Positions 10,639 through 36,707 are shown, numbered from the stretch's first letter. The stretch is 64,000 bases of DNA from Thermoplasmata archaeon (GCA_027314165.1 DAHVCH010000001.1:108590-172589); one strand, 5' to 3'. Numbers and translations: made by a program. The notes: generated from the letters alone by a model not told the origin.

Positions 10639-10785
10639 CCAGCCCGAAAGCCAGCGACGAGCGCGTGCCAGACCGACCTTCCCCCAAGGCGCTCCTAGGG
10701 CCCCGAGGGAAGGGGCGGGAGATAAGCTCGTTGCACACCCGAACCTTCCGGCGCCCCCCGCCGCGGGAAGGTCTCGGGGCAGGGC

Positions 10786-12147: not shown

Positions 12148-12177
12148 GAGCGCTGGAGCACTCGAGGGAAGATGTAC

Positions 12178-13696: not shown

Positions 13697-13796
13697 AGGA
13701 CTCCCCCAGTGGCCGCGCTCGTCCTGGCGGTATAAAAGACCCCCGATGAGAGTGACCAAAGCTCAGGTAGGGGGTCCGCCCTCCCCCGCAGTGGTC

Positions 13797-15716: not shown

Positions 15717-15723
15717 GGGCGCC

Positions 15724-16335: not shown

Positions 16336-17053
16336 GGGCGATGCGGAAGTTACCCTTCTCCAGCAGGAGGGAGTAAAGGTTCGACGAGTGGTTGGTCGAA
16401 CGCATCTTGACCACCCGGATGCGGCGCTGGATGGTCTCCTCGTTGACCTTCGCCATCATGAGGTGGACGATGCCGTCCGAGAGGTAGTCCTCCCCGTTCG
16501 GCCCGTAGTTCTCGACGTCCCGCCGCACCTCGGAGATGAGGATGCTCGTGACGCCCAGGTCGCGGATCCACTCGAAGAAGTGGAAGAGGTCGTTCCGGGG
16601 GTTCTGGAAGTCCGACAGCGTCTCGAGGACCGGGAGCGAGTCCAGGATCAGCAGGTCGTATCCCTGGCTGTCCTTCATGTTCCGGGAGTACATCTTCAGG
16701 ACCTCGATCCAGGACTTGTTCCCGAGGACGTTCAGGTTCTTCCGGATGAGCCCGATGTCCACGATCGAGAGCTTGTCGCCCACGGCTTCGAGCTTCATGC
16801 CCACGCTCTCCATGTTCTGGATGAGGCTCTCGCGGGACTGTTCCATCGTGATGTAGAGCCCCTTCTTGCCCTCCTTGAGCGCGTTCTCGTAGGCCATGTG
16901 GAAGGCCACGGTGCTCTTCATCGTGCCTGGCTCACCGGCGAGCAGCACGACGTGACCGGACGGTATGCCCCCCTCCATCTTCTCGTCGAGTCCCTCCACG
17001 TACGTCCGGATGCGCGGGACCTTCGATCCTGCGGTGGGCCCTGGGCTCATGGT
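16319..17053 (-). CDS. KaiC/RecA-superfamily ATPase (FlaH/KaiC-like single domain)
   Basis: Has Walker A LLAGEPGTMKST and Walker B LLILDSLPVLE with a KaiC-like layout. Local GC (~60%) and K/N/I-rich composition differ from the flanking DNA. A TCTTTAAGG TATA-like element lies ~45 nt upstream on the minus strand. Confidence 0.7.
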   Translation of the reverse strand, partial: TMSPGPTAGSKVPRIRTYVEGLDEKMEGGIPSGHVVLLAGEPGTMKSTVAFHMAYENALKEGKKGLYITMEQSRESLIQNMESVGMKLEAVGDKLSIVDIGLIRKNLNVLGNKSWIEVLKMYSRNMKDSQGYDLLILDSLPVLETLSDFQNPRNDLFHFFEWIRDLGVTSILISEVRRDVENYGPNGEDYLSDGIVHLMMAKVNEETIQRRIRVVKMRSTNHSSNLYSLLLEKGNFRIARVIST

Positions 17054-17210
17054 GCTACCTTCCCCCTGTTCTCTGAGGTGAGAAATCCTCGGGCTCCCCA
17101 TTGGGGTTGAACCTTAAAGATGTCGGTGCGGGCGCCCGCCGACCGCACCGGAGCGCCCCCCACTCCCCCCACGGGGGGCCAGCGGCGCGGACCCCCCTGC
17201 CCCCCATGCT

Positions 17211-17810
17211 TCAGCGCGGGGCGGACGGCCGGGGTCGGGGCTTGCCACGACGTCGGGAGCTCGTTCGCCCTCGGCGGGGACCTCCGCGCCCCCTCGCACC
17301 CCCACCCCGCAGGGCCAGGGCCTCCCGCAGGATCCGAGCGTGATCGGCGGCGAAGCGGGGCAGGGCGTCGAGCGGGAACCACTGGGCCTCGGCCGCGTCG
17401 TCCCCTCCCAGTACCTTCCCGCTCACCCGCCGAACGTGAAAGGCGATGGTCACGATGTGGCCACGCGGGTCTCGAGACGGGTCGGAGTAGACCCCCGACA
17501 GGCCTTCCACGACGGTCCGCAGCCCCGTCTCCTCCTCCACCTCGCGGACCACCGCCGACTCGCAGCTCTCGCCGATCTCGACGAAGCCTCCCGGAAGGGC
17601 CCACATGCCCTGCCAGGGAGGACGACCACGTCGGACCAGGAGGACCCTCCCGCGGGCGATGAGCACCCCATCGACCGTGAGAGCGGGCGTTTCGAGGGGC
17701 CGCAGATGGAGGTACGGGGACCCGGGGTACGGACGAAGGTACCCTCGTGGCCCGGTGGGCCCCTTCGCCCGCCGGCGAGCGACCCAGGGCGCGAGGGGGG
17801 TCCTCCCCAC
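17211..17810 (-). CDS. NUDIX hydrolase
   Basis: Has the Nudix box GGFVEIGESCESAVVREVEEETGL (Gx5Ex7REUxEExGU). The upstream part of ORF 17211..18056 is low-complexity, so the start is placed at an in-frame GTG near 17810 and is uncertain. Confidence 0.65.
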   Translation of the reverse strand: MGRTPLAPWVARRRAKGPTGPRGYLRPYPGSPYLHLRPLETPALTVDGVLIARGRVLLVRRGRPPWQGMWALPGGFVEIGESCESAVVREVEEETGLRTVVEGLSGVYSDPSRDPRGHIVTIAFHVRRVSGKVLGGDDAAEAQWFPLDALPRFAADHARILREALALRGGGARGRGGPRRGRTSSRRRGKPRPRPSAPR

Positions 17811-17869
17811 CCTTGGGACCTTTGAGGACCGAGGCGCCCTAGCGGCCCTAGAGCTCTTCCGCTTAGGGG

Positions 17870-18901
17870 GTGATGACAAGCAACCCCCAGGCGACGGAGA
17901 GGACGATGAGCCCGACCACGATCCAAGGGACCCATCTTCCCCAGCCTCCCGCGCCGCGACCCCACGAAGGCGCGCCGGCCGAGCGACCCGCCGGACCCAG
18001 GACCTCCTCGTCCGGCACCTCAGGGACCAAACTTCGCGCCATCGCGGGGGAGGCATCCGCCGCGCCTACTCAAGGTTCTGGGGAGCGTGGCCCGCGGGAG
18101 GGCCGGGCCAGTTCGCGACTCCCGGACGCGCTCCTCGCCGACCTTGGCCAGTGGACGACGGCCTCCCTGGAGCGCGCGGTGGCGGGAGCCTCCAGCGTGT
18201 CCGTGCTCTTCTCCGGAGGGCTCGACTCGGCCTTGCTCGCGCACCTGCTCCGGAAGCTCCCGGCCTTTGAGGGAGGACGGGGCATGGAGCTCGCGACCAT
18301 CGGCTTGGCCGGGTCGGCCGACCTGGCCCAGGCCGCCTCCGCCGCCGAGGCCCTGGGGCTCAAGTTCCACGCCCGCACCATCTCTCCCGAACAGGTCCGG
18401 GCTGCGGCCAGATCGGTCGAGGAGACCGAGCGGACGCAGGCCGCGCAGGGTCAGCCGCTCCCGCCTCCCCCGCAGGGAATGCGTCTCGAGGTCCTGACGG
18501 GCCTGCGGCTGGCGCTCGAGGCTGCTCCCACCACCAGGGTCCTCTGTGGCCAGGGCGCGGACGAGCTTTTCCTCGGATACGCCCACTTCTTGCCGCTGCG
18601 GGGAGAGCGGTTGGAACGGAGGTACCGCGAGGACCTTTCACAATTGCAGGGGACGGACTGGCCGGCCACCCAGCGCATCGCGGCCGCCCTCGCGAAGGAC
18701 CTGCGAGCGCCCTACCTCGACCCGGAGCTGGTCCAGAAGCTCGCGGCCTTCCCGTTGGAGCGCCGCCGTCAGGGAGGGGTGCCGAAGGGGCTCCTCCGAG
18801 AGGTCGCCGCGTCCCTGGGGCTGCCGACGGAGCTCGCCCAACGCCGGAAGAAGGCCCTCCAGTACGGGAGCGGGATCCACTCCGTGCTTTCACGGGCCTG
18901 A
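17870..18901 (+). CDS. asparagine-synthase C-terminal-domain-like PP-loop ATP pyrophosphatase
   Basis: Has the PP-loop SVLFSGGLDSALLAHLL and a C-terminal region (VLCGQGADELFLGY...; YLDPELV) reminiscent of AsnB C-domain / QueC-like amidotransferase partners. The first ~70 codons are low-complexity; the real start is probably near 18090-18130. Confidence 0.5.
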   Translation: MMTSNPQATERTMSPTTIQGTHLPQPPAPRPHEGAPAERPAGPRTSSSGTSGTKLRAIAGEASAAPTQGSGERGPREGRASSRLPDALLADLGQWTTASLERAVAGASSVSVLFSGGLDSALLAHLLRKLPAFEGGRGMELATIGLAGSADLAQAASAAEALGLKFHARTISPEQVRAAARSVEETERTQAAQGQPLPPPPQGMRLEVLTGLRLALEAAPTTRVLCGQGADELFLGYAHFLPLRGERLERRYREDLSQLQGTDWPATQRIAAALAKDLRAPYLDPELVQKLAAFPLERRRQGGVPKGLLREVAASLGLPTELAQRRKKALQYGSGIHSVLSRA

Positions 18902-19035: not shown

Positions 19036-21141
19036 ATGGCCTTCGTGGCACCGTTCGACCTGGTCGGAGGGGCGCTCGTCGTTCTCGCGGCGAGCGGAGG
19101 TGCGGGACTCCTCCCCTCCGCGTCCTCCCGCAGAGCGACCGTGGGTGCGCTCTCGCTCGCACTCCTAGGCTGCCTCCTCCTCGTTTCGGTCGCGCTTGAG
19201 GTCCTGCTCGGAGGGGCGGCGGGGACCGCTACGGTGGCCCTCCCCGGGTTCCAGTCCGCGTCGGAGGCCTTGAGCCTGGCCGTCGTGCTCGGTCCGCTCC
19301 AAGGGCTGTTCCTCCTGCTCGTGGGGGCGGTCGGCGGCGCCATCACGCTCGCCTCCGTCGGCTACGTGCCGGCCTACGTCCACGAGCGGCCGGCGACGCT
19401 GGCGGGGGTCTACGGGCTCTTCGTGGGGTCCATGGCGCTGCTGGTGCTCTCGGGCACCGCCTTCCTCTTCCTCGTGGCCTGGGAGGGGATGACCCTGCTC
19501 TCCTACGTGATGGTGGTGCACGAGCACGGTTCCTGGGACGTCCGACGCGCCGGTCTCACCTACCTCGTGATGAGCCATGCGGCGGCCGCAGCCCTCCTCG
19601 CGGGGTTCGTGGTGCTCTACGTGGGCACCGGCAGCACGAACTTCGGCGCGATGAGCGCGAACGCGCGCGCCCTTCCCGAGCTCACCCGGGATGCGGTGTT
19701 CGTCGCGATGGTCCTCGGTTTCGGGACCAAGGCGGGGGTCGTGCCCCTGCACGTGTGGCTACCGGAGGCGCATCCCGCGGCTCCGAGCAACGTCTCCTCG
19801 ATCATGTCGGGGGTCATGATCAAGATGGGCGTCTTCGGGCTCCTGCTCGTCGTCTTTGAGGTGCTGGGCGGGGGACCGCTGTGGTGGGGGTTCGTGCTGC
19901 TCGTCCTGGGAGCGGCCTCGGCCCTGCTGGGGGTGCTGAACGCCATCGCGCAGCACGACGTGAAACGGCTGCTCGCCTTCCACTCGGTCGAGAACATCGG
20001 CATCATCTTCATGGCGCTGGGAGCGGCGCTGGTCTTCCTCTCGCTCGGATGGCCCGCGCTCGCGGCGGTCGCGCTCCTGGCCGCGATCCTCCACACCTTC
20101 AACCATGCGATGTTCAAGGGGCTCCTCTTCCTCGGGGCCGGAGCTGTCGTGGGCACGACAGGGACCCGCGACATGGAGCAGATGGGAGGCCTCGCCCGGG
20201 GCATGCCCAGGACGGCGATCGCCTTCCTCTTCGGGGCGATGGCCATCTCCGCGCTCCCGCCGCTCAACGGGTTCGTCAGCGAGTGGTTGCTCTTCCAGGC
20301 GTTCTTTGCCTCCTTCGGGACCGGCTCCTTGGCGACCGAGGTCGCCTTTACGGCGGCCGCCGGGACGCTCGCGCTCGCGAGCGGGCTCGCCGCCTACTGC
20401 TTCGTCAAGGCGTTCGGAGTGATCTTCCTCGCCCGCCCGAGGTCCGAGGTCGCTCGGTCGGTGCGTTCGGACGCGCCGGCCGCGATGCAGGTCGGGATGG
20501 TCGCTCTCGCCGGCGCGTGCGTCACGGTCGGGGTCTTCCCCGTCCTTCTCCTCAGCACGTTCGCCGGGACCGTCCGCACGCTCACGGGCGCCTCCTACGC
20601 CACGTCGCCCTGGGCGTGGGGCGCGCCTCTCGCGTTCCCTTCGGTCTCAGGGGCCGCGACACCCAGCGTCCCGCCCCACGGTAGCCTCGCCATCGGCGTG
20701 GTGGCGCTCCTGCTCATGGTCGTGCTCCTGGCCGCCATGGTCCTTCGCCGGGCCACCTCGAACGGCAGCCCCTCGCGCCGGCCGATGTGGGACTGCGGGA
20801 TGGACGCCCCCACCCCGAGGATGGAGTACACGGCGAGCGGCTATGCCCAGCCCATCCTCCGGCTGTTCTCCGTGTTCTACGGGGCGCACCCGGTCTCCGA
20901 GCTAGGGGACCTGGGAGGCGCGAGACCGGGGGTCCTCCAGAAGACCGTCCGGCACGAGTCGGAGGTGGACTATCCGCTGATGGAGCAGGTCTACTCCCCG
21001 ATCGTCCGGCTCCTGCGCGAGCTCGCCCGCCGGGTGAGCCGACTCCAATCCGGAGGGATCCATGCCTACCTCGCCTACATGGTGCTGACCCTGGTGGTCC
21101 TCCTCGTCGCGTCGAGGCTCTTCGGAGGGGTCCTTCCGTGA
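19036..21141 (+). CDS. Ehr/Hyf-type complex antiporter-like subunit (NuoL/HyfB/MnhA family)
   Basis: About 700 aa with ~20 TM helices and the conserved proton-pump motifs (WLPEAHPAAPSNVSS, GTKAGVVPLHVWLP). It is the first gene of a tightly packed six-gene cluster. Confidence 0.8.
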   Translation: MAFVAPFDLVGGALVVLAASGGAGLLPSASSRRATVGALSLALLGCLLLVSVALEVLLGGAAGTATVALPGFQSASEALSLAVVLGPLQGLFLLLVGAVGGAITLASVGYVPAYVHERPATLAGVYGLFVGSMALLVLSGTAFLFLVAWEGMTLLSYVMVVHEHGSWDVRRAGLTYLVMSHAAAAALLAGFVVLYVGTGSTNFGAMSANARALPELTRDAVFVAMVLGFGTKAGVVPLHVWLPEAHPAAPSNVSSIMSGVMIKMGVFGLLLVVFEVLGGGPLWWGFVLLVLGAASALLGVLNAIAQHDVKRLLAFHSVENIGIIFMALGAALVFLSLGWPALAAVALLAAILHTFNHAMFKGLLFLGAGAVVGTTGTRDMEQMGGLARGMPRTAIAFLFGAMAISALPPLNGFVSEWLLFQAFFASFGTGSLATEVAFTAAAGTLALASGLAAYCFVKAFGVIFLARPRSEVARSVRSDAPAAMQVGMVALAGACVTVGVFPVLLLSTFAGTVRTLTGASYATSPWAWGAPLAFPSVSGAATPSVPPHGSLAIGVVALLLMVVLLAAMVLRRATSNGSPSRRPMWDCGMDAPTPRMEYTASGYAQPILRLFSVFYGAHPVSELGDLGGARPGVLQKTVRHESEVDYPLMEQVYSPIVRLLRELARRVSRLQSGGIHAYLAYMVLTLVVLLVASRLFGGVLP

Positions 21142-22106
21142 CCGCCCCCGCTCCCTGGGTGCAGTTCCTCCTGCTCGTCTTCGAGCTCGCGCTCGTGCTC
21201 GGTATCAGTCCAATGCTCGTGGGCATCATGAGGCGCGTGAAGGCCAGGAGCCAACGACGCCTGGGACCCCCGTTGCTGCAGCCCTACCGGGACCTGCGGA
21301 AGCTCTTCAGAAAGGACCGCATCTACGCGGAGAGCGCGAGCACGCTCACCCCCTACGCCCCCTGGGTCTCGTTCGTTGCCCTCGTCTCGGCGGTCCCCTT
21401 CCTCCCGTGGTTCTTCGTGCCCGCTCCCCTCGGGTTCGCGGGCGACCTGATCGTCGTGGTGGGGCTCCTCGCCCTCTCCCGGTTCATGACCGCGCTCGCG
21501 GCGCTGGACGCGGGGAGCACGTTCGGCGGGATGGGTTCGACGCGTGACATGTGGATCGGGGCCCTCGCCGAACCGACCTTCCTCCTCGTCATCTTCGCCT
21601 GGGGGGCCCCCTCGGGCTCGACGCAGGCCTCCGTCATCGTGGAACACGGGCTCTCGCTCGGCCTCGCCCACCTGAGCCCGGCGCTGCTCCTCGCCTCCAC
21701 GGCCTTCGGGGTGCTCCTCCTCGCCGAGACCGGGCGGCTGCCGGTCGACAACCCCGCCACGCACCTCGAGCTCACGATGGTGCACGAGGCGATGGTCCTG
21801 GAGTACACCGGCCAGGACCTGGCCGTCATCGAGTGGGGCAAGGGGATCAAGTTCGTCCTGCTCGCAGGGCTCCTCACGGCCGTCCTGCTCCCCTGGGGCA
21901 TCGCCACCGCGCTCGGGGCCGGGGCCCTGGCCCTTGGCGTGGGGCTCCTTCTGGTGAAGCTCTCGTCGACCGCCTGGCTGGTCGGGCACCTCGAGACGCG
22001 CGTCGCGAAGTGGCGGCTCTTCCGTGTGGCCGACCTCTCGACGCTCGCGGTCGCCTTGGCCCTGGGCTCCATCGCGCTCACCTATCTCGTGGGGGTCGGC
22101 TCGTGA
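21138..22106 (+). CDS. Ehr/Hyf-type complex membrane subunit (NuoH/HycD family)
   Basis: The GTG at 21138 overlaps the preceding stop (GTGA). The N-terminus VQFLLLVFELALVLGISPMLVGIMRRVKARSQRRLGPPLLQPYRDLRKLFRKD carries the NuoH/HycD signature (ARxQxRxGP...QxxxDxxKLxxKE). Confidence 0.75.
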   Translation: MTAPAPWVQFLLLVFELALVLGISPMLVGIMRRVKARSQRRLGPPLLQPYRDLRKLFRKDRIYAESASTLTPYAPWVSFVALVSAVPFLPWFFVPAPLGFAGDLIVVVGLLALSRFMTALAALDAGSTFGGMGSTRDMWIGALAEPTFLLVIFAWGAPSGSTQASVIVEHGLSLGLAHLSPALLLASTAFGVLLLAETGRLPVDNPATHLELTMVHEAMVLEYTGQDLAVIEWGKGIKFVLLAGLLTAVLLPWGIATALGAGALALGVGLLLVKLSSTAWLVGHLETRVAKWRLFRVADLSTLAVALALGSIALTYLVGVGS

Positions 22107-22759
22107 CCTCCGACGGACTGCTGCTGCTCGAGATCGCCGCCTCGGTGGTCCTCGTCACCGCCTGGATCGCGCTCGTCCACCGGCGGCTGGACGCCCAGGT
22201 CCGGCTCTACGCGATCCAGTCGCTCGCTCTGGCGGTCATCTCGGGACTCGTGGCCTACCTCTACTCCGCGCCGCTGCTCTACCTGACGGGCGCCCTCTTC
22301 GCCGCGCTGAACGGCGCGCTCCTGCCCTGGATCCTGCTCACGGTCCGACGGGAGCTCCGCATCCCGCCGGAGGCGAACATGCTCGTCTCCGTCCGGGGGA
22401 GCGCGCTGGCCGGGCTGGGGTGCCTCCTCCTCGCCGTGGCCGTCGTGGGGCCCCTCACCCCGCTTGCCGCGGTCCCCGCGGCCGGCCTCCTCCCGATCTC
22501 CGTCACGGTGGTCTTGGTCGGGCTCTTCGTGACCGTCTCCCGACGCAAGGCCTTCTCCCAGGTGCTCGGGATCCTGGTGATGGAGAACGGGGTCTTTCTC
22601 GCCGGCCTGGCGCTCACCTACGGGCTTGGCATCCTCTTGGAGCTGGGCATCGCCGCGAACCTGCTCGTGCTCGCGATCGTGAGCCGGCTCTTCCTGCACC
22701 GGATGAAGGACTCCTTCGACTCGCTGGACGCGGACGTCCTCCGCTCCCTGGAGGGGTGA
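22103..22759 (+). CDS. Ehr/Hyf-type complex small membrane subunit (HyfE/NuoK-like)
   Basis: The GTG at 22103 overlaps the upstream stop. It is 218 aa with 6 TM helices, and its position and size match HyfE/EhrC-like subunits. Confidence 0.65.
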   Translation: MTSDGLLLLEIAASVVLVTAWIALVHRRLDAQVRLYAIQSLALAVISGLVAYLYSAPLLYLTGALFAALNGALLPWILLTVRRELRIPPEANMLVSVRGSALAGLGCLLLAVAVVGPLTPLAAVPAAGLLPISVTVVLVGLFVTVSRRKAFSQVLGILVMENGVFLAGLALTYGLGILLELGIAANLLVLAIVSRLFLHRMKDSFDSLDADVLRSLEG

Positions 22760-22766
22760 GAGGAAG

Positions 22767-24245
22767 ATGCCGCTGGAATGGACCGTCGTCCTCCTGCTGG
22801 TCCCCGCGGCCTGCGCCGGACTGGTCGAGGTCGTGCCGGGTCGGTCGGCGGTGAACGCGGTCGCGATCGCCGGGGCCCTGGGCTCCCTCATCGCGGTCCT
22901 GGCGATCGTCCAGCAGGTGCTCCTTCAGGGGACTGCGACGACCCCGATGGACGCGCTCTACGTCGACGCGCTCTCGGCGGTGCTCCTCCTCCTCTTGAGC
23001 GTCGTGGGGCTCGCCTCGGTCCTGTACTCGGTGGACTACCTGGGGCGCGAAGGGAGCCCGCACTCGCTGTCGCTCCCGCAGCTCCGGAGGTACCACGCGT
23101 TCGTCCTCCTCTTCCTGTTCACGATGTTCCTGGTGGGCGAGGCGAACAACCTAGGGCTCCTCTGGATCGCCCTGGAGGGAACGACCCTGGTCTCGGCGCT
23201 CCTGGTGGGCTTCTACCACACCCGGAAGTCCATCGAGGCGTCCTGGAAGTACCTCGTCCTCTGCACCGTCGGACTGGTCTTCGCGCTCTTCGGAACGCTC
23301 CTGCTCTACCTCGCCTCGGCCACCGCGAGCGGGAGCGCGGGGGCTTCGCTCGATTGGACGGCCTTGATCCAGATCGCCCCCAAGTTCGACCCAGGGCTGG
23401 TCCGGCTCGCGCTCGTCTTCCTCTTCGTGGGATACGGGACGAAAGCGGGTTTCGCACCGCTGCACACCTGGCTGCCCGATGCCCACTCCGAGGCCCCCAC
23501 ACCGGTCTCGGCGCTGCTCTCCGCCGGCCTCCTCAAGTGCGCCATCTACGCGCTGCTGCGGGTGGACGCGATCACGCTCCGGATGCCCGGGTTCACTTTC
23601 GCGACGTGGCTCTTCCTGGGCTTCGGGGTCGTCTCCGTGCTGCTCGCGGCCCTCTTCATCCTGGTGCAACGGGACCTCAAACGCCTCCTGGCCTACCACT
23701 CGGTCGAGCACATCGGGATCATCTCGATCGGCATCGGGTTCGGGGGGCCGCTCGGGCTCTTCGGAGCGATCTTCCACATGGTCAACCACGCCGCCACCAA
23801 GGCGGCCCTGTTCCTTGCGGGAGGCGACCTGGCCGTGGCCGCGCGGACGAAGGACCTCGACGAGATCTCCGGGGCGCTGACCGCGATCCCCGCCACCGGG
23901 ACGGTCCTGCTGATCGGCGGGCTTGCCCTCGCCGGGGTCCCACCCTTCTCGATCTTCGCGAGCGAGTTCCTGATCGTCTCCTCGGGCTTCCAGGCCGGCG
24001 ACTGGGTCGTGGCCGTGATCCTGCTGGTCGCCCTGGCCATCGTCTTCGGAGGGCTGCTGCTCCACCTGACGAGCGCGCTGTTCGGACCGAAGCCCCGTCA
24101 AGGGTTCCCCGGGATCCGCGCCCGGGTGGTGGGGACCGCGCTCGCCATCGGACTGCTCCTCCCGCTCGTGGTCGGGCTGGGCTTGCTGCTCCCCAACCCC
24201 CTCGCGACGCTCCTCCACGATGCGGTCAGGGTGGTGATGGGATGA
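22767..24245 (+). CDS. Ehr/Hyf-type complex antiporter-like subunit (NuoN/NuoM/HyfF family)
   Basis: 492 aa with 14 TM helices and motifs GTKAGFAPLHTWLPDAHSEAPTPVSALLSA, typical of NuoM/N-type subunits. Confidence 0.8.
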   Translation: MPLEWTVVLLLVPAACAGLVEVVPGRSAVNAVAIAGALGSLIAVLAIVQQVLLQGTATTPMDALYVDALSAVLLLLLSVVGLASVLYSVDYLGREGSPHSLSLPQLRRYHAFVLLFLFTMFLVGEANNLGLLWIALEGTTLVSALLVGFYHTRKSIEASWKYLVLCTVGLVFALFGTLLLYLASATASGSAGASLDWTALIQIAPKFDPGLVRLALVFLFVGYGTKAGFAPLHTWLPDAHSEAPTPVSALLSAGLLKCAIYALLRVDAITLRMPGFTFATWLFLGFGVVSVLLAALFILVQRDLKRLLAYHSVEHIGIISIGIGFGGPLGLFGAIFHMVNHAATKAALFLAGGDLAVAARTKDLDEISGALTAIPATGTVLLIGGLALAGVPPFSIFASEFLIVSSGFQAGDWVVAVILLVALAIVFGGLLLHLTSALFGPKPRQGFPGIRARVVGTALAIGLLLPLVVGLGLLLPNPLATLLHDAVRVVMG

Positions 24246-25915
24246 GCGCGGGCGCACCGGACCACGGGTCGGAGGCCCCCCTCCTGTCTGCGACGCGGTC
24301 CCAGGGCGAGCGCACGGCCCCTCCCCCTCGATCGCAGGTGGAGGTCCCCGGAGCCCGCGACGAGCGAAAGTGGGTCGCCGCGGCACGGGGTGGGCCGACC
24401 CTGGAGGAAGCTGAGGAGGGCCCGTGGGAGGTGGTCGTGGCGTTGGAGCGTTGGCGCCCCTCCGTCCTGTCGCTCGTCCATGCGCTGCGATTCCGCCTGG
24501 CGACGCTCTGGGGCGAGAACGCGCACGGCGGGGACGTCGAGGTCCACGGGATCTTCCTGGGAGGGGCCGAGTGCCGGGGCGTCCACCTCCGCGTCGACCT
24601 GCCGGGAGCGGCGCGAAAGCTGCCCTCGTTGCTGCCGGACCTGCCCACGGCCCTCTACTTCGAGCGGGAGCTCTCGGAGATGTTCGGGGTCACGATCCTC
24701 GCCTCCCCCGACACCCGTCCGCTCCTGCTCCACGAACGTCACACCGCCCCTCCGATGCTGCCCGCAGGCGGCGAACCCACGGGGGTCCGTGCCCCCTTCG
24801 GGTTCCCCCGTACGGAAGGGGAAGGGGTCTACGAGGTCCCGGTCGGGCCGGTGCATGCAGGAGTGATCGAGCCCGGCCACTTCCGCTTCCAGGTGCGAGG
24901 GGAGGAGATCCTCAACCTCGAGGTACGCCTGGGCTACGCCCACAAGGGGACGGAGAGGCTGTTCGAGGGACTCGAGCCATCTCAGGCCACGGTCCTCGCC
25001 GAGTCGATCTCGGGGGACATGTCGGTCGCGGGTGCCACCGCGTATGCGCTCGCGGTGGAGGACGTCCTCGGGGTTCCTGTCCCTCCCGCCGCGCAGACCG
25101 CCCGGGGCCTGCTGCTCGAGCTGGAACGGGCGGCGTTCCTGATGGGGGATGTCGCTGGGATCATCCTGGACGTGGGGTACGCGGCCGGGGCCGCCGAGGC
25201 CAACGTCCTTCGAGAACAAGCCTACGGCACGCTCGAGCTCCTCACCGGTTCCCGGCTCGGGCGAGGGGCCGTGGTTCCCGGAGGGCTCGCTCGGCCGGTC
25301 CCGGCGGAGGCGCGAGTGGACGTGGAGCGGTCGCTGGACGCCGTCCGGCGGGGCCTCGCCGGCCTCGTCGACCACGTCCACGACCAGCCCAGCATCATGG
25401 ACCGGCTCCGAGGAACGGGGGTCATCTCGCTCGAGGTCGCCGAAGCCCTAGGCATGGTCGGACCGGCCGCCCGGGCCAGCGGTCTCGTCAGGGACGTGCG
25501 GCGGGACCGCCCTTACGGTCCCTATGTCCACGAGCGCGTGCGCGTCCGTGTCGCCTCCCGTTCCGAAGGCGACGTGGAGGCACGGTTCGAGGTGAAGGTC
25601 GCAGAGGTCCTCGAGGCCTGCCGACTCGCGCGGCACTTCCTCGGCGAAGGGGGTCCCGCGACGGGACCCCTGATCTCCTCGCGATCGGCCCGGCCCCGCC
25701 ACGGTCTCGGCATCGTCGAGTCCCCCCGCGGGGAGTTCCTGGTGGCCCTCCGTCCTTCGGAACCGGCGAAGAAGGTGCTCGCGAGGGTCCACGTCCGCGA
25801 CCCCTCCTTCCTCAATTGGCCGGCGATCGAGTACGCCGTCCGCGGGAACATCGTCCCGGATTTCCCGCTCTGCAACAAGAGCCTGAACCTCTCGTACTCG
25901 GGGTTCGACCGATGA
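24242..25915 (+). CDS. fused NuoC/NuoD-like (HycE-like) large subunit lacking [NiFe]-binding cysteines
   Basis: The ATG overlaps the upstream stop (ATGA). It has an N-terminal NuoC-like segment (LVHALRFRLATLWGEN...) followed by a large-subunit domain GPVHAGVIEPGHFRF...RLGYAHKGTERL. The position of the hydrogenase L1 motif (ERxCGICGFxHSxAY) reads ESISGDMSVAGATAY, and the C-terminus ends ...DFPLCNKSLNLSYSGFDR instead of DPCxxC. Confidence 0.8.
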   Translation: MSAGAPDHGSEAPLLSATRSQGERTAPPPRSQVEVPGARDERKWVAAARGGPTLEEAEEGPWEVVVALERWRPSVLSLVHALRFRLATLWGENAHGGDVEVHGIFLGGAECRGVHLRVDLPGAARKLPSLLPDLPTALYFERELSEMFGVTILASPDTRPLLLHERHTAPPMLPAGGEPTGVRAPFGFPRTEGEGVYEVPVGPVHAGVIEPGHFRFQVRGEEILNLEVRLGYAHKGTERLFEGLEPSQATVLAESISGDMSVAGATAYALAVEDVLGVPVPPAAQTARGLLLELERAAFLMGDVAGIILDVGYAAGAAEANVLREQAYGTLELLTGSRLGRGAVVPGGLARPVPAEARVDVERSLDAVRRGLAGLVDHVHDQPSIMDRLRGTGVISLEVAEALGMVGPAARASGLVRDVRRDRPYGPYVHERVRVRVASRSEGDVEARFEVKVAEVLEACRLARHFLGEGGPATGPLISSRSARPRHGLGIVESPRGEFLVALRPSEPAKKVLARVHVRDPSFLNWPAIEYAVRGNIVPDFPLCNKSLNLSYSGFDR

Positions 25916-26877
25916 TCGGCGGCGGGTCACCCGGGTCGGCGACGAGCAGGGGCGAGCCGAGCGCGGATCGGGAGGCGGCCCCCTCCTCACCCTCTCGCGC
26001 CCGGTCCACCGCGTCCGCTCCTCCGCGCGAGACGACCTCCGGTATCTTCGGTCCCTGCACGACAAAGGCCTACCCTCAGGGACCCGCGGAGCTGGCGCGG
26101 ATGGGGGCGAGGACCCCGTGGCACGACCCGGGTGTCTGCGAGGGCACAGGAGCGTGCGCGCGCGCCTGTCCCACGGAGGCGATCACGATCGAGGGCACGG
26201 GGCGGGGGGCCCGTCTCCGCCTCGACTACGGGGCGTGCGTCTTCTGTCGCAAGTGCGTGGACGCCTGTCCCACCGGAGCCCTGCGGGCTGTCCGCTTCTT
26301 TGAGCTCGCCGTGCGGTCGAAGGACGACCTCGTCGCTCGGCACGTGGCCGGTGGGACCCTCGGTGCGAACCCGCCCCCGAGCCAGGACAAGGTTTCCCGG
26401 GAAGTGCGCGAGCGCATCTCCCGCCTCTTTTCCGGGTCGCTCGCCGTGCGGGCGGTGGACGCTGGCAGCTGCAACGGTTGCGAGGTGGAGGTCTCCGCGC
26501 TCTCGTGGCCCGCCTACGACGCCGAGCGGCTCGGGATCCATTTCGTGGCGTCGCCACGGCATGCGGATGCGCTGCTCGTCACCGGTCCCGTCAACCGGAA
26601 CATGCGCCTCGCCCTCCAGAAGACCCTCGATGCGACCCCCGACCCGAAGTTCCTGGTCATCGCGGGGGCCTGCGGGATCTCCGGCGGACCGTTCCGCCGC
26701 TCGAAGGAAGTGGAGGGGGGCGTCCCCCCGTCGGACCTGCCCTCGGTCTGGGTCCCCGGTTGCCCTCCGCGCCCGGAAGCTCTCCTCTACGCCTTCTGGC
26801 TCGCGCTCGGCCGGGTGGAGCAGCAGCTGAAGAACGGGGAGCTTCCCCCCAAGGTCGGGGGAAGTTCCTTGAGGTAA
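25912..26877 (+). CDS. fused 2x[4Fe-4S] ferredoxin (NuoI/HycF-like) + NuoB/HycG-like small subunit
   Basis: The ATG overlaps the upstream stop (ATGA). It has two ferredoxin motifs (CEGTGACARACP, CVFCRKCVDACP), then the small-subunit motifs GSCNGCEVE, GACGISGGPF and VPGCPPRPE, i.e. all four Cys for an N2-type cluster. Confidence 0.8.
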   Translation: MIGGGSPGSATSRGEPSADREAAPSSPSRARSTASAPPRETTSGIFGPCTTKAYPQGPAELARMGARTPWHDPGVCEGTGACARACPTEAITIEGTGRGARLRLDYGACVFCRKCVDACPTGALRAVRFFELAVRSKDDLVARHVAGGTLGANPPPSQDKVSREVRERISRLFSGSLAVRAVDAGSCNGCEVEVSALSWPAYDAERLGIHFVASPRHADALLVTGPVNRNMRLALQKTLDATPDPKFLVIAGACGISGGPFRRSKEVEGGVPPSDLPSVWVPGCPPRPEALLYAFWLALGRVEQQLKNGELPPKVGGSSLR

Positions 26878-26883: not shown

Positions 26884-28065
26884 TTGCCGCGTGGCGTGTC
26901 TCGCCGCTCGCCCCCACCCGCGCCTGCTCCTCACCCCGGCGCGTCCCCGCTGGACCCCCATTCCCTCGGGCTCGAGCCCATCCCGCGGGTGATCCAGAGA
27001 TCGGGGGCCTCCACGCTCGTCGTGAGCCTGCCGAAGGAGTGGATCGAGCTCGAGGGGCTCCGCGCGGGCCAGTTCGTCTCCTGGGTCCGAGAGGACGACG
27101 GGGACCTCCGACTCCACCTCCCGGGGAAGCAGGTCCTTCCGACCCAGCCTAGGACCTGCGTCATCCGGACTCCCGGCCTGCGGTCGGTCGACCAGGCCCG
27201 GCGCCTGCTGTTCTCCGCCTACGTTCTGGGCTACGACCGCGTGCGGCTCGAGGACCCCGAGGGTCTGGACGAGGAGGTGCGGGCCGGGGTCGAACGGGTC
27301 AGCCACGAGCTCCTCGGGTTCAGCCTGACGGAGGCCTCCCGGACCACGCTGGTGGCGACCAGCTTCCTCGATCCCGCCGCGCACCCGGTGGCCGAGGTGA
27401 TCTCCCGGATCGGGTACACCCTGGACGTCCTCCTCGAACGCCTCGAGATGTCGCTCGCCGACGGGAACCCCAACGCGCTTCAGAGGGTCCCCGAGGTCCG
27501 CGTCGAGGTCCGGCGGCTCCACGCCCTCGCGCTCCGGCAGCTCAACCTCGCCGCGGCGAACCCACGGCTCGCGCGGCAGCTCGGCGTGAGCCGGCCCAGT
27601 CACCTTCTGGGTACCCGGGTCGTCGCGAAGCTCCTCGACGACATCGCGGACGCGGTGGAAGCCGTGGCGGGAGAGCTCTCCCGAATCGGCCGGGCTCCGC
27701 TCTCCGCGCGTCCGGTGCTGGAACAGATCCGAGGTCGGGTCCAGTCGCTCCGGGAGCGGCTGCGGCTCGCCCTGGGCGCCTTACGCTCCGGGAGCGCCAT
27801 AGAAGCGGAGCATGTCCTGGCCGCGCGCAGGGAAGCTCTCGAACGGTTTCTCGGGACCGAGGCCAAGCTCCGACGGATGACCGGTCCCTCGAGCCTGCGG
27901 CACTCGCTGGCCCTCGCCTCCTGGTGGGTGGGGGTCGCCCGTCAGCACGCCGAGGCGGTCGCCGAGGTCGCCTTCACGCGCGCCCTGGACCGCAACCCTT
28001 CCGTCCTGGACCTTTCCTCTTCCGGAGAGAAGAGGTTCAGCGTAAGTTCCGACCCGTCCGGATAG
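26884..28065 (+). CDS. PhoU-domain regulator with N-terminal SpoVT/AbrB-like swapped-hairpin domain
   Basis: The N-terminus IQRSGASTLVVSLPKEWIELEGLRAGQFVSWVRED is AbrB/MazE-like. The remainder is helical with two PhoU-like repeats. The gene starts 7 nt after the Ehr-cluster stop. Confidence 0.5.
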   Translation: MPRGVSRRSPPPAPAPHPGASPLDPHSLGLEPIPRVIQRSGASTLVVSLPKEWIELEGLRAGQFVSWVREDDGDLRLHLPGKQVLPTQPRTCVIRTPGLRSVDQARRLLFSAYVLGYDRVRLEDPEGLDEEVRAGVERVSHELLGFSLTEASRTTLVATSFLDPAAHPVAEVISRIGYTLDVLLERLEMSLADGNPNALQRVPEVRVEVRRLHALALRQLNLAAANPRLARQLGVSRPSHLLGTRVVAKLLDDIADAVEAVAGELSRIGRAPLSARPVLEQIRGRVQSLRERLRLALGALRSGSAIEAEHVLAARREALERFLGTEAKLRRMTGPSSLRHSLALASWWVGVARQHAEAVAEVAFTRALDRNPSVLDLSSSGEKRFSVSSDPSG

Positions 28066-28737: not shown

Positions 28738-28933
28738 CCCTCCGGTCCCCTGGACCTGGGGCGCCCTCTCCACAGGTCTGTCGTGGGAGCCCGAGGCGGG
28801 TCCTCGGGGCTCGAGGGGCCGCGTCCGGGGCCCGTCACCTCTCCTCGATGGAACCTCTCGGAGGTAACGTCGGGCGCGGCATCCTTCAAATAATGGCCCG
28901 GCTAACATACATGGTGGCCCCGGCCCGAGGGCC

Positions 28934-30595
28934 GTGCGCGCCGAATCGGGGACGTTCCATTGTCCAGCGCAGCACCCGGGGGGAGCTAGCCCGATGGCCG
29001 CCCCGTACCAACCCCCGCCGCCCCCTCCCTCCGATCGACCCCTCTCCGATCAGGGAAGCGCGGGTCCGCAGTCCATGCAGGGCTCCTGGGGTACGACCTC
29101 GGGGCCTACGCAGCGCCCCCGCCACGTCCTGGTGCTCGACATCTCGAAGAGCATGCTCGCTCCCCTTCCGGACCCCAGCGACCCCAGCCGGGTCCGGAGG
29201 AAGATCGAGGTCGCCCGGGCCGCGACCTACCGCATCTTCGAGACGGTCCAGTCCCAGGGAGCGATGTTCGGGCTGGTCATCTTCAACAACGTGGCCCACG
29301 TCGCGATCCCCCTCACCGAGATCCGTCCGGAGATCCGCCCCGCGCTCGACAATCTGGTGGCTCTCCTGCCCCCGAAGGGACGGTCCGCGATCTGGGACGC
29401 GCTCGCCCTGGGCGCGGACCTGCTGCGCGTAGAGGGCGGAGCGACCCACGGGAACCTCGTCCTGGTGACCGACGGGTGGGACAACATGTCGCAACGGTTC
29501 GGGGCCCCCGGCATCGACCTGCCCCCGCCCCCACCCCCGGGGTCCCCTCCGGGAACTTCCCCCCCTCCTCGCGCCGACATCCTCGCCTACCTTCTCACCC
29601 AGGGCAGCAGGCTCGGGCTCCGCATCATCGGGATCGGGAGCGGCGTCGAACGGGACAAGGGGGTCGACTCCCAGAGGATGCGCGCCTTCACGGACGCCTA
29701 CGCCGCCCGGACCCAGGCGTGGAGACTGGGCTGCACCGTCTCCTACGAGGAGGTCACGACGAGCGAGGAGCTCTTCTCCCGCATGGTCCAGGCGTTCGTC
29801 GACATCCCATTCGAGGACGCCATGGCGGTGGAGAACCTCCACCCCGACGAACTGGCAGAGGCGGCAGCCTCGGCCGCCCGGGCGCTGCGCGACTCCGACG
29901 GGAAACGCAGCGTGGTGGGCCACCTGGCTTCCGGCAAAGGTACCGGCGCCGCCGGGAGCCCCGCCCCCGGGACCCCCTCCCAGCCGGGGATGGAGGTCGA
30001 CATCCTGAGCCCGCAGGCCGGTCACTCCGCGGTGAACCTGAGGGACCGTTACGGGCCCCTGGGAGAGGTCGCGGAGGCGTACATGGCCCGCGATTGGGCC
30101 AGGGCCCAGGCCATCCTGTACCAGAAGGGAGGCCTCATCGCCCCCGTCACCCGGTTCTACTGGCAGGCGCGCGTCTACTTCGCGCAAGGAGAGAAGGGGG
30201 AGGCGGGCCGCTACCTAGCGCAAGCCTGGTCGGAGGCCGAGGCGCTACCCGTCGCGGACCGGGGCCGGGTCGTCCGCCGGCTCGCGCTGCTCCAGGCCAA
30301 GGTCACCGGCGACAGGGAGACGGAGAGCCTGGTCAGCTTCTACGACGCGGCCGAGACGAAGGCCCGGTCGCTGGGCAGCGGGCTCGGCGACAAGCTCGAA
30401 CGGATGTTCGACCGCATCCTGGCGCTGAGGGGCACCTACGCGACGGTGAAGGGAGGGGGCGCGGCCGCCCACGAGGAGCTCGTGGAGGAGATCTTCGGAC
30501 TGCTCCAGGACGCCCGCCTCGCCAACACCCAACGCGAGCCCGCCATCGACGCGTTCCTGGACTTCGTGGAGATCGCCCTCGCAGAGATGCGGTAG
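28934..30595 (+). CDS. von Willebrand factor A (vWA) domain protein with Pro-rich linker and C-terminal alpha-helical (TPR-like) domain
   Basis: Has the vWA MIDAS start HVLVLDISKSMLAP (DxSxS) with a downstream T (LVTDGWDN), a PPPPPPGSPPGTSPPPR linker and a ~250-aa helical C-terminal domain. A TATA-like TTCAAATAAT lies at 28886-28898. The start is GTG at 28934 or ATG at 28994. Confidence 0.7.
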   Translation: MRAESGTFHCPAQHPGGASPMAAPYQPPPPPPSDRPLSDQGSAGPQSMQGSWGTTSGPTQRPRHVLVLDISKSMLAPLPDPSDPSRVRRKIEVARAATYRIFETVQSQGAMFGLVIFNNVAHVAIPLTEIRPEIRPALDNLVALLPPKGRSAIWDALALGADLLRVEGGATHGNLVLVTDGWDNMSQRFGAPGIDLPPPPPPGSPPGTSPPPRADILAYLLTQGSRLGLRIIGIGSGVERDKGVDSQRMRAFTDAYAARTQAWRLGCTVSYEEVTTSEELFSRMVQAFVDIPFEDAMAVENLHPDELAEAAASAARALRDSDGKRSVVGHLASGKGTGAAGSPAPGTPSQPGMEVDILSPQAGHSAVNLRDRYGPLGEVAEAYMARDWARAQAILYQKGGLIAPVTRFYWQARVYFAQGEKGEAGRYLAQAWSEAEALPVADRGRVVRRLALLQAKVTGDRETESLVSFYDAAETKARSLGSGLGDKLERMFDRILALRGTYATVKGGGAAAHEELVEEIFGLLQDARLANTQREPAIDAFLDFVEIALAEMR

Positions 30596-30653
30596 GGTCT
30601 CGGGGGCCAAAGCATATCATGAACGTTCACGTGAGAAGAAGGAGCCCTCCAAG

Positions 30654-32033
30654 ATGAGCCCCCCCAACCCCACGAAAGGTGCGAACAAGAAGCGACCCGC
30701 CGACGCGGCCGCGGCTCCGCCGGCGCCTGCTCCCGCGCCGCCTCCCCCTGCGCGCGCGCCCGCCCCCGAGCCTGCACCGGCCCCGACCGCGCCCGGCGAA
30801 GCTCCGGTCGAGCCGGAACCCGCCATCCCGGCGCCCGTGGTCCGCAAGGTCGTCCCAGGGTCCGTTCCACCCCCGGAGAGGAGGGCCCCGCCGCCACCCC
30901 CCATCCGCCCACGAAAGGCCCCGGAGCCGGAACCGCCGGAACCTCCGCCGATCGGGGCCAAGATCGCCGTGGTCGGGATCCCCGCTTCGGGGAAGACCAC
31001 CTACTTCCGCTACCTCTCCGGTCACTTCGGGCTGAACCTGCCTCTGGTCTACGTCCCCAGCCGCTCCGGCTCGGTCATCCCCCTCTTCGGGGACATCGGG
31101 AACGAGGTGGTGATGGAGGAGACCACCTACGAGTCCGACCCCAACAATCCCGCCGCGGCGATGGACACCACGACGCGCCTCTACGTCAATCGGCCGATGG
31201 AGGACCCCACGCGGCTCTTCGTGGAGCTCGCGCAGGGACAGGAGGAGCAGGGGATCCTGACCAAGTATCCCCTTCCGACGAAGTACAACCAGTTCGTCGA
31301 GATGAAGCTCAACTTCCGGTACGGGGTCGCGGGGAACCTCGCCCAGGCGAAGCCGATGGTCCTTAGGACCGTCGACGAGGCCGGGGGGATCATCTCGGAC
31401 TACTTCACCTACGACCGCCTGTGGATCAACGCTCCTACCGAGGAGGTCCCGGTCGAGAAGTGCCGGGTCATCCCGCGCTTCGACACCTGGAAGCCCGACC
31501 GCCAGGAGCTCTGGCGACGCGGGCTCACCCTGATGGGAAGGTTCACCGTCGACGCCGACGGCATCATCCTTCTCCTCACCCCGCAGCTGGGCTCGCTCAG
31601 GGACAGCGCCCAGCAGGTGAACCTCGCGCGGGGGGTCTTCCGGTACGCGCGGCAGCGGGGCATCCCCGTGGTGATCGCGATATCGAAGGCCGACCTGCTG
31701 AAGGAGTTCTACCTCGAGGTGGAACAGGTCCTGACCAATCGCGGGTACCTCTCAGGGTTCGACAGCAACCGGTTCCTCACCGAGCGCGACGGAAGCGGGC
31801 TCGGGAGCATTCTCGCGGCCCAGGAGGGCCGCGGGTTCTCCACGAAGGAGGACGCCTACCTGGTCGCCTCGGCGATCTCCACGGGAGAGGGACGACCTCT
31901 CCTCTACGGGGACACGGCGGACGTCGACCTCAACAACGGTGCGACCGCGGGAGTGCCCGTGATGGTCAACACGACGCTCCCCCTCGCCCGGATCTGCGAG
32001 CGCGTGCTGACCGAGCGCGGCGACCTGAGCTAG
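30654..32033 (+). CDS. TRAFAC-class small-GTPase-like protein with Pro/Ala-rich N-terminal IDR and large inserted domain
   Basis: Has G1 AKIAVVGIPASGKTTY, G3 RFTVDADGII (DxxG) and G4 VVIAISKADL (NKxD-like SKAD). There is a ~110-aa PAPAPAPPPP-type N-terminal region and a ~190-aa insertion between G1 and G3. A TATA-like GCATATCA lies ~38 nt upstream of the ATG. Confidence 0.7.
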   Translation: MSPPNPTKGANKKRPADAAAAPPAPAPAPPPPARAPAPEPAPAPTAPGEAPVEPEPAIPAPVVRKVVPGSVPPPERRAPPPPPIRPRKAPEPEPPEPPPIGAKIAVVGIPASGKTTYFRYLSGHFGLNLPLVYVPSRSGSVIPLFGDIGNEVVMEETTYESDPNNPAAAMDTTTRLYVNRPMEDPTRLFVELAQGQEEQGILTKYPLPTKYNQFVEMKLNFRYGVAGNLAQAKPMVLRTVDEAGGIISDYFTYDRLWINAPTEEVPVEKCRVIPRFDTWKPDRQELWRRGLTLMGRFTVDADGIILLLTPQLGSLRDSAQQVNLARGVFRYARQRGIPVVIAISKADLLKEFYLEVEQVLTNRGYLSGFDSNRFLTERDGSGLGSILAAQEGRGFSTKEDAYLVASAISTGEGRPLLYGDTADVDLNNGATAGVPVMVNTTLPLARICERVLTERGDLS

Positions 32034-32042
32034 GGGCGGGGC

Positions 32043-36580: not shown

Positions 36581-36707
36581 TGGATGGGCGGTCCGGAGCA
36601 GGACCGGGAACCCCTCGCCGGCTTTCGACCGAGAAGCAAGGAGAGAGCGTGAGCGGCGACAATTCACGCGTACATTCCTTAATATCAATGGGACCGGTCG
36701 TGAACTC

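Follow-up and report, generated by a model that had tools for sequence, protein, structure and literature searches.

In a 64,000-nucleotide stretch of a Thermoplasmata archaeon genome (GCA_027314165.1 DAHVCH010000001.1:108590-172589; hereafter the window, with positions counted from its first letter), the gene at 24242-25915 very probably encodes the large subunit (EhrL-type) of an Ehr complex, in which every cysteine of the hydrogenase [NiFe] site has been replaced. The names 'Ech-hydrogenase-related' and 'energy-converting hydrogenase-related' are both in use for these complexes, which are group-4-like, lack the CxxC motifs, fall close to groups 4f and 4a in phylogenies and are described as being of unknown function (PMC7894505, PMC10284858, PMC6349859, PMC7304191, PMC10432482, PMC4758237, PMC6728331). 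The cysteine-less feature is therefore not new, as the family is already named and widespread. We favour as probable a reading in which the window locus encodes a ferredoxin-fed, ion-translocating Ehr complex with an acceptor other than protons at the remodelled pocket.

The assignment to Ehr rests on homology, operon and signature, with G. sulfurreducens EhrL (GSU0739-45) and M. tuberculosis Rv0087 lying outside the comparison. The large subunit is homologous to those of group-4 [NiFe]-hydrogenases and to NuoD, both CxxC motifs that carry the [NiFe] ligands are missing, genes for the full Ehr subunit set (NuoL-, NuoH-, HyfE- and NuoN-like proteins plus large and small subunits) lie at 19036-26877, and the sequence signature is common to lineages in which the literature names Ehr. 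By published accounts, Ehr was originally recognised in Geobacter sulfurreducens (Coppi 2005), and a later analysis treated it as a possible link to complex I (Marreiros et al. 2013). The subunit list of the G. sulfurreducens complex includes NuoL-like, HyfE-like, large and small proteins (PMC7894505), a study of Nitrospira placed Ehr phylogenetically near group 4f (PMC10284858), and the complex has been reported in a Methanomassiliicoccales genome (PMC6147122). Known examples are G. sulfurreducens EhrA-D/L/S, M. tuberculosis Rv0082-87 and the Ehr of comammox Nitrospira, ammonia-oxidising archaea, candidate phyla radiation (CPR) bacteria and Methanomassiliicoccales; the window locus shares with them a cysteine-less group-4-like large subunit, a small subunit, the NuoL-, NuoH-, HyfE- and NuoN-like membrane subunits, and the signature S/A-G-D-x ... 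N-L-S-Y-S/A-G.

The remodelled [NiFe] pocket

The large-subunit gene begins with an ATG that overlaps the TGA of the gene upstream (ATGA), and both Pfam Complex1_30kDa and Complex1_49kDa match its product. Among solved structures, phmmer (HMMER) ranked E. coli HycE first (7z0s_E; E=1.9e-55, 29% identity), ahead of P. furiosus MbhL (3e-32), T. thermophilus Nqo4 (6e-31), M. smegmatis NuoD and P. furiosus MbsL (6u8y_L, 1.4e-23). A single-chain AlphaFold2 model, made from a 61-sequence alignment, had a predicted local distance difference test (pLDDT) score of 86.5 and a predicted template modelling (TM) score of 0.90, with low confidence at the N-terminal 29 residues and at residues 203-208 in the β1-β2 loop. 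Searched against the PDB with Foldseek, this model again found 7z0s_E first (TM 0.84/0.88, root-mean-square deviation 3.1 Å across 532 columns), followed by E. coli NuoCD (TM 0.75-0.81).

An exact-sequence lookup returned no identical protein, and a 92%-identical homologue (P0001) was taken as comparator. The window is about 70% GC throughout, so long spurious open reading frames (ORFs) are frequent. Three were rejected as genes: a 1045-amino-acid (aa) ORF at 22778-25915 (+), which is merely the same frame left open upstream of the true start at 24242, the start also seen in P0001; a 427-aa antisense ORF at 24098-25381 (-), an open-frame artefact of the 70% GC; and an 817-aa ORF at 24424-26877 (+), an alternative-frame artefact of the same kind. 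Antisense shadow ORFs likewise cluster between loci in all-against-all BLAST comparisons.

HycE residues are numbered here as in PMC9474812 (the PDB chain is offset by +12), and our statements on the pocket rest on alignment to the residues named in that work. The alignment has no gaps over either ligand motif: at the N-terminal motif (L1) HycE DRVCGICGFAHSTAY stands opposite ESISGDMSVAGATAY of the large subunit, and at the C-terminal motif (L2) HycE SLDPCYSCTDR stands opposite SLNLSYSGFDR. The gene, the sites within it and the residue replacements are as follows.

24242..25915, + strand: Ehr large subunit (EhrL-like), 557 aa; NuoC/30-kDa domain at about residues 60-175, fused to a NuoD/HycE 49-kDa domain at residues 196-557
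24869..24871, + strand: codon of E210, the β1-β2 loop Glu equivalent to HycE E193
25001..25045, + strand: L1 remnant ESISGDMSVAGATAY, residues 254-268; S257 and M260 in place of two Cys, D259 a new Asp found family-wide, G264 in place of a conserved His
25880..25912, + strand: L2 remnant SLNLSYSGFDR, residues 547-557; S551 and G554 in place of two Cys, N549 in place of canopy Asp529
HycE C241 (Ni-Fe ligand): S257
HycE C244 (Ni-Fe ligand): M260
HycE H248 (conserved His after L1): G264
HycE D529 (canopy Asp): N549
HycE C531 (Ni-Fe ligand): S551
HycE C534 (Ni-Fe ligand): G554

A sequence-only reading of this DNA had described a large subunit that keeps the HycE/NuoD blocks, carries collinear Cys-to-Ser, Cys-to-Met and His-to-Gly changes at L1 and ends in something other than DPCxxCxxR. 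The alignment bears this out on each count: both blocks are present (GPVHAGVIEPGHFRF at residues 202-216 and RLGYAHKGTERL at residues 229-240), ESISGDMSVAGATAY occupies residues 254-268 opposite L1 without a gap, and SLNLSYSGFDR places S551 and G554 at the L2 ligand positions. The whole subunit has three cysteines (C111 in the NuoC-like domain, C460 and C544), none of them at a ligand position, so a four-thiolate Ni-Fe site is impossible. The four-Cys pattern of group-4 [NiFe]-hydrogenases (RxCGxCxxxH at L1 and DPCxxCxxH/R at L2) is thus absent. Because all four ligands are replaced, H2 chemistry should be excluded, and we predict that the subunit can neither hold a [NiFe] centre nor turn over H2. 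The protein ends in ...VPDFPLCNKSLNLSYSGFDR*, stopping at the Arg that matches the maturation cleavage point of HycE (R537), without a C-terminal peptide, and none of the ~45 ORFs scanned with Pfam and NCBIfam in the 64-kb window matched a Hyp family.

The β1-β2 loop (GPxH...EPGHFR) is kept, as is the charged network that joins the pocket to the membrane arm: E210, R411, E455, R496 and D556 correspond to HycE E193, R395, E437, R478 and D536, of which E193 is the proton-donating residue in hydrogenases (PMC9474812).

Conservation of the cysteine-less state

Relatives were sought in a collection of 5.8 billion proteins, and the [NiFe] cysteines are missing from all of the best 120 matches that we examined. 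A near clade (P0001-P0028, 46-92% identity), from metagenome-assembled genomes (MAGs) labelled Thermoplasmata or Euryarchaeota archaeon, reads ES[IV]SGD[MHS]SVAG ... NKSLNLSYSG[FY]DR. A wider set at ~40-48% identity, from Methanomassiliicoccus (including M. luminyensis), Methanoperedens, ANME-2 and Omnitrophica, reads ER[IV]SGDNSxAH ... NKS[FL][NS]LSY[SA]GNDL. Across the 61-sequence alignment S257, G258, D259, S551, Y552, G554 and D556 are invariant, and so is E210.

To sample more widely we took the 150 top-ranking representatives from clustering at 50% identity; the Cys quartet is missing from 117 of them and kept in 24. In the 117 cysteine-less representatives the position of HycE C241 is occupied by Ser (73), Ala (28) or Cys (14), that of I243 by Asp in 104, that of C244 by Ser, Thr, Glu or Asn, that of C531 by Ser in 106 and that of C534 by Gly in 111. 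The β1-β2 loop Glu is present in 109 of the 117 and in all 24 representatives with the quartet. H188, E193, H284, R395, E437, R478 and D536, which have been given proton-delivery or 'canopy' roles in HycE (PMC9474812), are kept in the cysteine-less representatives. The invariant residues, and the recurrence of the same substitutions across cluster representatives, argue that the cysteine-less state is not chance decay.

The 24 quartet-bearing relatives resemble the window large subunit in length, NuoC-NuoD fusion and motif flanks, at 35-42% identity, and read ERxCGxC...H and ...PDFPLINKSF-ELCYxCxDR in the columns where the cysteine-less family has S-G-D-x and L-S-Y-S-G. Since the literature puts Ehr close to group 4f, we infer that these relatives are bona fide group-4 [NiFe] hydrogenases near that group.

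A scan for the family signature NKS[LF][NS]LSY[SA]G, with one genome per species, found it in at least 600 species genomes. Among the matches listed are bacteria (Nitrospira, Daviesbacteria, Saccharibacteria, Acidobacteria, Rokubacteria, Methylobacter, Burkholderiaceae, Streptomyces, Thermincola and Acetobacterium) and archaea (Nitrososphaeraceae, Nitrosotenuis, Nitrosopumilaceae, Methanomassiliicoccales and Methanosarcinales). The Nitrospira MAG QZM_B4_2_Bin429, also among them, belongs to a hot-spring study that found Ehr in 7 of 11 MAGs. Measured against the 92%-identical locus (L001), the ratio of nonsynonymous to synonymous substitution rates (dN/dS) was 0.04-0.23 in all seven genes compared (the six genes of the operon and the AbrB-type gene beside it, both described below), which are under purifying selection.

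These patterns bear on the proposal that the protein works as a genuine hydrogenase through unconventional metal ligands, or that it belongs to a decaying, functionless pseudo-operon. The protein does retain the overall hydrogenase fold together with the loop Glu and canopy Arg, and one recent paper treats the Ehr of G. sulfurreducens as non-functional (PMC13194489). Either proposal has to contend with a protein that has only three cysteines, none at a ligand position, with substitutions that are conserved over hundreds of species instead of being random, and with low dN/dS and intact translational coupling. All Ehr subunits were moreover detected in the G. sulfurreducens proteome, where they were more abundant with formate than in hydrogen-containing conditions (PMC7894505). 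We consider this proposal, in both of its forms, extremely improbable.

The Thermoplasmata subclade has features of its own. Its 29 near-clade sequences differ from the wider archaeal group by seven consistent changes (R255S, H264G, Y298A, N299F, H300L, K517H and I544C), the first five at sites that are conserved elsewhere in Ehr, and they end in ...DR where the wider Ehr family ends in ...DL. N299F falls at the canopy position HycE S283, and H300L at HycE H284, a proton-path residue conserved even in complex I; the His lost at the H248 position is likewise conserved from hydrogenases through to complex I. Gly at the H248 position and Leu at the H284 position occur in 5 and 6, respectively, of the 117 cysteine-less representatives. 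These traits make the subclade a recognisable variant, and none of them places it outside Ehr.

The operon and its fused electron-transfer subunit

Five further genes accompany the large-subunit gene in an operon, which an AbrB-type gene follows.

19036..21141, + strand: HyfB/NuoL-like antiporter-type membrane subunit (EhrA-like), 701 aa with a C-terminal extension; Pfam Proton_antipo_M, 8.5e-51
21138..22106, + strand: HycD/NuoH(ND1)-like membrane anchor (EhrB-like), 322 aa; Pfam NADHdh, 1.1e-33
22103..22759, + strand: HyfE-like small membrane subunit (EhrC-like), 218 aa; weak Pfam Oxidored_q2 match, 0.0019
22767..24245, + strand: HyfF/NuoN-like antiporter-type membrane subunit (EhrD-like), 492 aa; Pfam Proton_antipo_M, 1.1e-56; NCBIfam 'hydrogenase 4 subunit F', 463 bits
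25912..26877, + strand: fused electron-transfer subunit, 321 aa; HycF/HyfH/NuoI-like 2x[4Fe-4S] ferredoxin domain and HycG/NuoB-like small subunit; Pfam Fer4 families and Oxidored_q6
26884..28065, + strand: AbrB/SpoVT-type (MazE_antitoxin fold) protein, 393 aa; N-terminal domain Pfam PF04014, 2.3e-06; no NCBIfam match

The product of the first gene matches NCBIfam 'hydrogenase 4 subunit B' over its full length (632 bits), with the start set from the 701-aa L001 orthologue. The second gene opens with a GTG that overlaps the preceding stop codon, and its L001 orthologue is also 322 aa long (dN/dS 0.067); the third varies neither in place nor in length among the related operons (dN/dS 0.037). Overlapping start and stop codons point to translational coupling of the six operon genes, which are collinear with E. 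coli hyfB-C-E-F-G-(H+I). The locus thus resembles E. coli hydrogenase-4/formate hydrogenlyase-2 (hyfABCDEFGHI) and hydrogenase-3/formate hydrogenlyase-1 in its hyfB-C-E-F-G-H-I order and its NuoC-NuoD fusion, but it lacks the [NiFe] cysteines and the maturation peptide, and its HyfH and HyfI counterparts are fused. Neither hyfA, hyfD nor a formate dehydrogenase partner was found among the window ORFs scanned or in related loci. Related contigs carry the same operon, as do M. luminyensis and Methanoperedens (40-48% identity), in which the ferredoxin and the small subunit are separate genes. When all ORFs of 85 loci were clustered, the six operon gene families and antisense shadow ORFs alone were conserved.

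The fused subunit matches MbhJ (5e-35), HycG (1e-34) and HycF (1.7e-14) in the PDB. Its ferredoxin domain has cysteines at 76/82/86 and 109/112/115/119. In its small-subunit part C187, C190, C254 and C284 line up with MbhJ and HycG in a hydrogenase-type GSCNGCE...GACG...GCPP context, in agreement with the sequence-only reading, which had credited the partner subunit with all four proximal-cluster cysteines. The locus thus combines the hydrogenase scaffold for a proximal [4Fe-4S] cluster (CxxC...C...CPP) with the loop Glu, and we predict an intact Fe-S wire of two ferredoxin-type sites and a proximal [4Fe-4S] cluster.

The fusion of ferredoxin and small subunit is kept in all six subclade loci and arises independently in a few bacterial lineages; in most bacterial Ehr, by contrast, the ferredoxin domain is missing. 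That the domain is both fused and conserved speaks for continued electron transfer in at least this branch. The first ferredoxin motif, CxxTxxCxxxCP, lacks its second Cys, which is replaced by T79 (codon 26146-26148). This position is Thr, Gly or Val in five of the six subclade loci (the window, L001 11671-12639, L002 11632-12525, L089 8228-9094 and L090 9650-10537), and Cys in the sixth (L088); M. luminyensis and Methanoperedens, whose ferredoxins are separate proteins, also have Cys there. Motifs with another residue in place of the second Cys are typically tied to [3Fe-4S] or labile clusters, and the pattern suggests that a three-Cys cluster, [3Fe-4S]-type or labile, may sit at the electron-entry end.

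The AbrB-type gene adjoins the operon in the window, L001, L002-4, L089 (50% identity) and L088 (34% identity, divergent), that is, in 5 of 6 subclade loci. Its dN/dS is 0.084, and the L088 homologue has a faint PhoU match. The gene is probably a regulator of the operon and not a subunit of the complex.

Other neighbours vary between lineages. In 11 of the 85 loci (L040 3413-3808 and ten other bacterial loci) a gene of ~120 aa stands before the Ehr operon, on the same strand and ~6 kb upstream of the large subunit; by eye its product looks like an ArsR/SmtB-type helix-turn-helix regulator, and the arrangement echoes M. tuberculosis, in which Rv0081 lies ahead of Rv0082-87 (PMC6728331). On the M. 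luminyensis contig (L005, CAJE01000023.1) the Ehr operon (4858-12377) lies directly upstream of a six-gene Ech-type hydrogenase operon (13195-18348), the large subunit of which matches NiFeSe_Hases, and is divergent from a gene for an HdrD-like Fer4+CCG protein (1942-3231). A Usp gene lies 3' of the Ehr operon in M. luminyensis, Methanoperedens (L007) and L008.

Elsewhere in the window, a VWA-domain protein is encoded at 28868-30595 (+), followed by same-strand genes up to 39701. These include ORFs without a Pfam match of 527 aa (30450-32033), 868 aa (32034-34640) and 1066 aa (36501-39701), the last two separated by GNAT-type and methyltransferase-type ORFs. L001 shows synteny (14757-18732) for the VWA gene and the two that follow it. 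The minus strand carries genes for an archaeal-type CCA-adding enzyme (1985-3568), FtsZ (7532-8596) and a KaiC/RecA-like ATPase (16319-17101), which support an archaeal origin in line with the Thermoplasmata labels on the closest homologues, and no tRNA genes were found in the 64-kb window.

Electron transfer, ion translocation and the acceptor

In the reading that we favour, a low-potential donor, most likely reduced ferredoxin, would load the HyfH-like domain, and electrons would move on to the proximal cluster at the interface of the large, small and ND1-like subunits. A non-proton acceptor would be reduced at or beside the remodelled pocket, and this redox step would power the translocation of H+ or Na+ by way of the ND1-like and antiporter-like subunits; the process could also run in reverse. 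That the complex is both redox-driven and ion-translocating we rate slightly above an even chance.

Several observations weigh against this reading. Among the 85 loci no donor or acceptor gene is conserved beside the operon, including formate dehydrogenase, NuoEF and Hdr as partner enzymes, which leaves a proposed association of formate dehydrogenase with Ehr (PMC6349859) without support in this clade. The proximal [4Fe-4S] ligands are replaced in the Ehr small subunit of Methanosarcina (L011 10385-10897 and L032 10521-11036), and small-subunit cluster ligands are likewise replaced in Dehalococcoidia (L013 3771-4301 and L036 10419-10949), Moduliflexus (L075 10371-10925) and L012 (10335-10844). 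These cluster-less proteins read GSDNS[TPA]EIE ... GDDACDGG ... PGNPP, and the ferredoxin gene is missing from their operons. Because some family members have lost the proximal-cluster cysteines, the core function of Ehr may not need electron transfer. In the Thermoplasmata subclade, the His equivalents of HycE H248 and H284 and the canopy Asn have become Gly, Leu and Phe, which lessens the support for proton-coupled pocket chemistry. The literature through 2026 demonstrates no biochemical function for any Ehr complex (PMC10284858, PMC13194489). A neighbour-joining tree calculated with the motif columns masked interleaves cysteine-less and quartet-bearing clades, although this tree is unreliable and is not evidence of repeated loss.

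The cluster-less operons speak for a non-catalytic, Mrp-like ion translocator or antiporter, whose hydrophilic module would be structural or act as a redox or ion sensor and whose oxygen-rich S/D/S/E pocket would hold water or a cation. The operons of Methanosarcina, Dehalococcoidia and Moduliflexus are complete, yet their small subunits (GSDNSxE...PGNPP) are without cluster ligands; most bacterial Ehr operons lack a ferredoxin-type input subunit; no partner dehydrogenase is conserved nearby; and the conserved pocket replacements are oxygen donors (Ser, Asp, Ser/Thr, Ser and Glu). The window version, on the other hand, keeps all four proximal-cluster cysteines, and it has a ferredoxin input domain that is fused throughout the subclade and under purifying selection, a feature that would make little sense if no electrons were transferred. 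For this locus, a translocator of that type is unlikely.

For the redox-driven complex that we favour, the identity of the acceptor is a separate matter. The sequence-only reading had proposed quinone- or other-acceptor-reducing, non-H2 chemistry, with a quinone site such as that of NuoD as an example. Its non-H2 part stands, given the missing ligands, and the NuoD-like quinone site does not: the residues opposite are Gly258 for Tyr87 and Glu210 in the loop, and the small subunit has a CxxC motif. A full version of the idea holds that the complex is a complex-I-like ferredoxin:quinone oxidoreductase whose emptied Ni-Fe pocket has come to bind a membrane quinone (menaquinone or thermoplasmaquinone), along the path that NuoD took in its evolution. 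Fold and subunit set do match the Q- and P-modules of complex I. Compared with the Q-module of T. thermophilus (Nqo4) and E. coli (NuoCD), the locus shares the fold, the absence of a Ni-Fe site, an N2-equivalent proximal [4Fe-4S] cluster, ND1-like and antiporter-like partners, and a Gly where hydrogenases have their last ligand (M. smegmatis NuoD ...VMGGVDR, ...SYSGFDR here). Polar pocket residues have also become small or hydrophobic in the subclade (H264G, Y298A, N299F and H300L).

One more observation touches on quinones. At 40956-43994 (+) a radical-SAM protein (best NCBIfam match, B12-binding/radical-SAM) adjoins a UbiD-family decarboxylase (TIGR00148, above cutoff), the sole relevant match when the ~45 window ORFs were scanned for fdh, nuo and quinone-biosynthesis genes. 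It could be counted in favour of a quinone acceptor as a generic family match only; against the menaquinone-decarboxylase model it scores a weak 98 bits (cutoff 496). The gene is a possible hint at prenylated-aromatic or quinone chemistry in the organism.

The locus differs from complex I in having just six genes, with no NuoA/NuoJ/NuoK set. Several features tell against the quinone proposal. The residues that hold the quinone head group in complex I, Nqo4 Tyr87 and the loop His (Nqo4 H38/NDUFS2 H95), are Gly258 and Glu210 here; Tyr87 aligns without a gap to Gly258, the Gly between the two Cys in HycE. Complex I differs from hydrogenases in ligating N2 with a tandem CC in place of CxxC (PMC9474812), and the window small subunit reads GSCNGCEVE, like MbhJ and HycG. 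The Phe and Leu substitutions of the subclade depart from complex I, where N185/H186 are retained. By alignment, a NuoD-style quinone site thus appears to be absent. The wider family, furthermore, occurs in quinone-less organisms: Acetobacterium and CPR bacteria, both among the signature matches listed, are not known to have quinones. Riflemargulisbacteria with Ehr are also reported to lack quinone biosynthesis (PMC6349859). We therefore regard a quinone as a doubtful acceptor, and a complex-I-like ferredoxin:quinone oxidoreductase of the NuoD kind as unlikely.

A Ni-free precedent comes from Pyrococcus, where the proximal Fe-S cluster of the sulfane-sulfur/polysulfide reductase MBS would reduce its substrate in a pocket without nickel. 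Of the Ni-free members of the superfamily, MBS (Mbx; MbsL, 6U8Y) is the only one characterised structurally (6u8y_L, E=1.4e-23), and it offers a precedent for a catalytic proximal cluster with redox-coupled ion translocation. Its membrane arm and operon are of the Mrp-rich type. The window operon is instead hyf-type, and MbsL ...RICVPEPDVP, which aligns to ...ESISGDMSVAG, retains Cys in the column of the first ligand (pocket CVPEP against SGDMS here). Identity to MbsL is below that to HycE (E=1.9e-55), MbhL and Nqo4, and sulfur-metabolism genes were not seen among the window ORFs scanned. Although Mbx has been grouped with hydrogenase-related complexes (PMC6349859), we judge an MBS-like sulfur reductase very improbable here.

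The subclade pocket changes, the fused ferredoxin and the three-Cys site could together mark an independent conversion of the pocket to a hydrophobic site for a lipophilic acceptor, and so a functionally distinct Ehr variant. We think this rather improbable; if true, the subclade would have arrived at an energy-converting complex of the ferredoxin:quinone type by a second route, separate from that of NuoD.

Ehr complexes hold an intermediate place between membrane-bound hydrogenases and complex I. Hundreds of bacterial and archaeal species encode them, among them nitrifiers, CPR bacteria, mycobacteria and methane-cycling archaea. In ~20 years of study they have been given no substrate, a question that the window locus does not settle. 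What the locus adds is a clean archaeal example with a complete operon under selection, and an explicit input domain of the ferredoxin type, a sign that electrons still flow in this branch at least. It also provides a residue map of how the Ni-Fe site was replaced by a conserved Ser-Gly-Asp / Ser-Tyr-x-Gly set, with the Glu/Arg/Asp proton network kept. A complex-I-like module apparently without any redox cofactor, as in the cluster-less relatives, bears on the common function of the family, and the contrast between those relatives and the window locus offers a handle on whether that function is redox-driven or purely ion-translocating.

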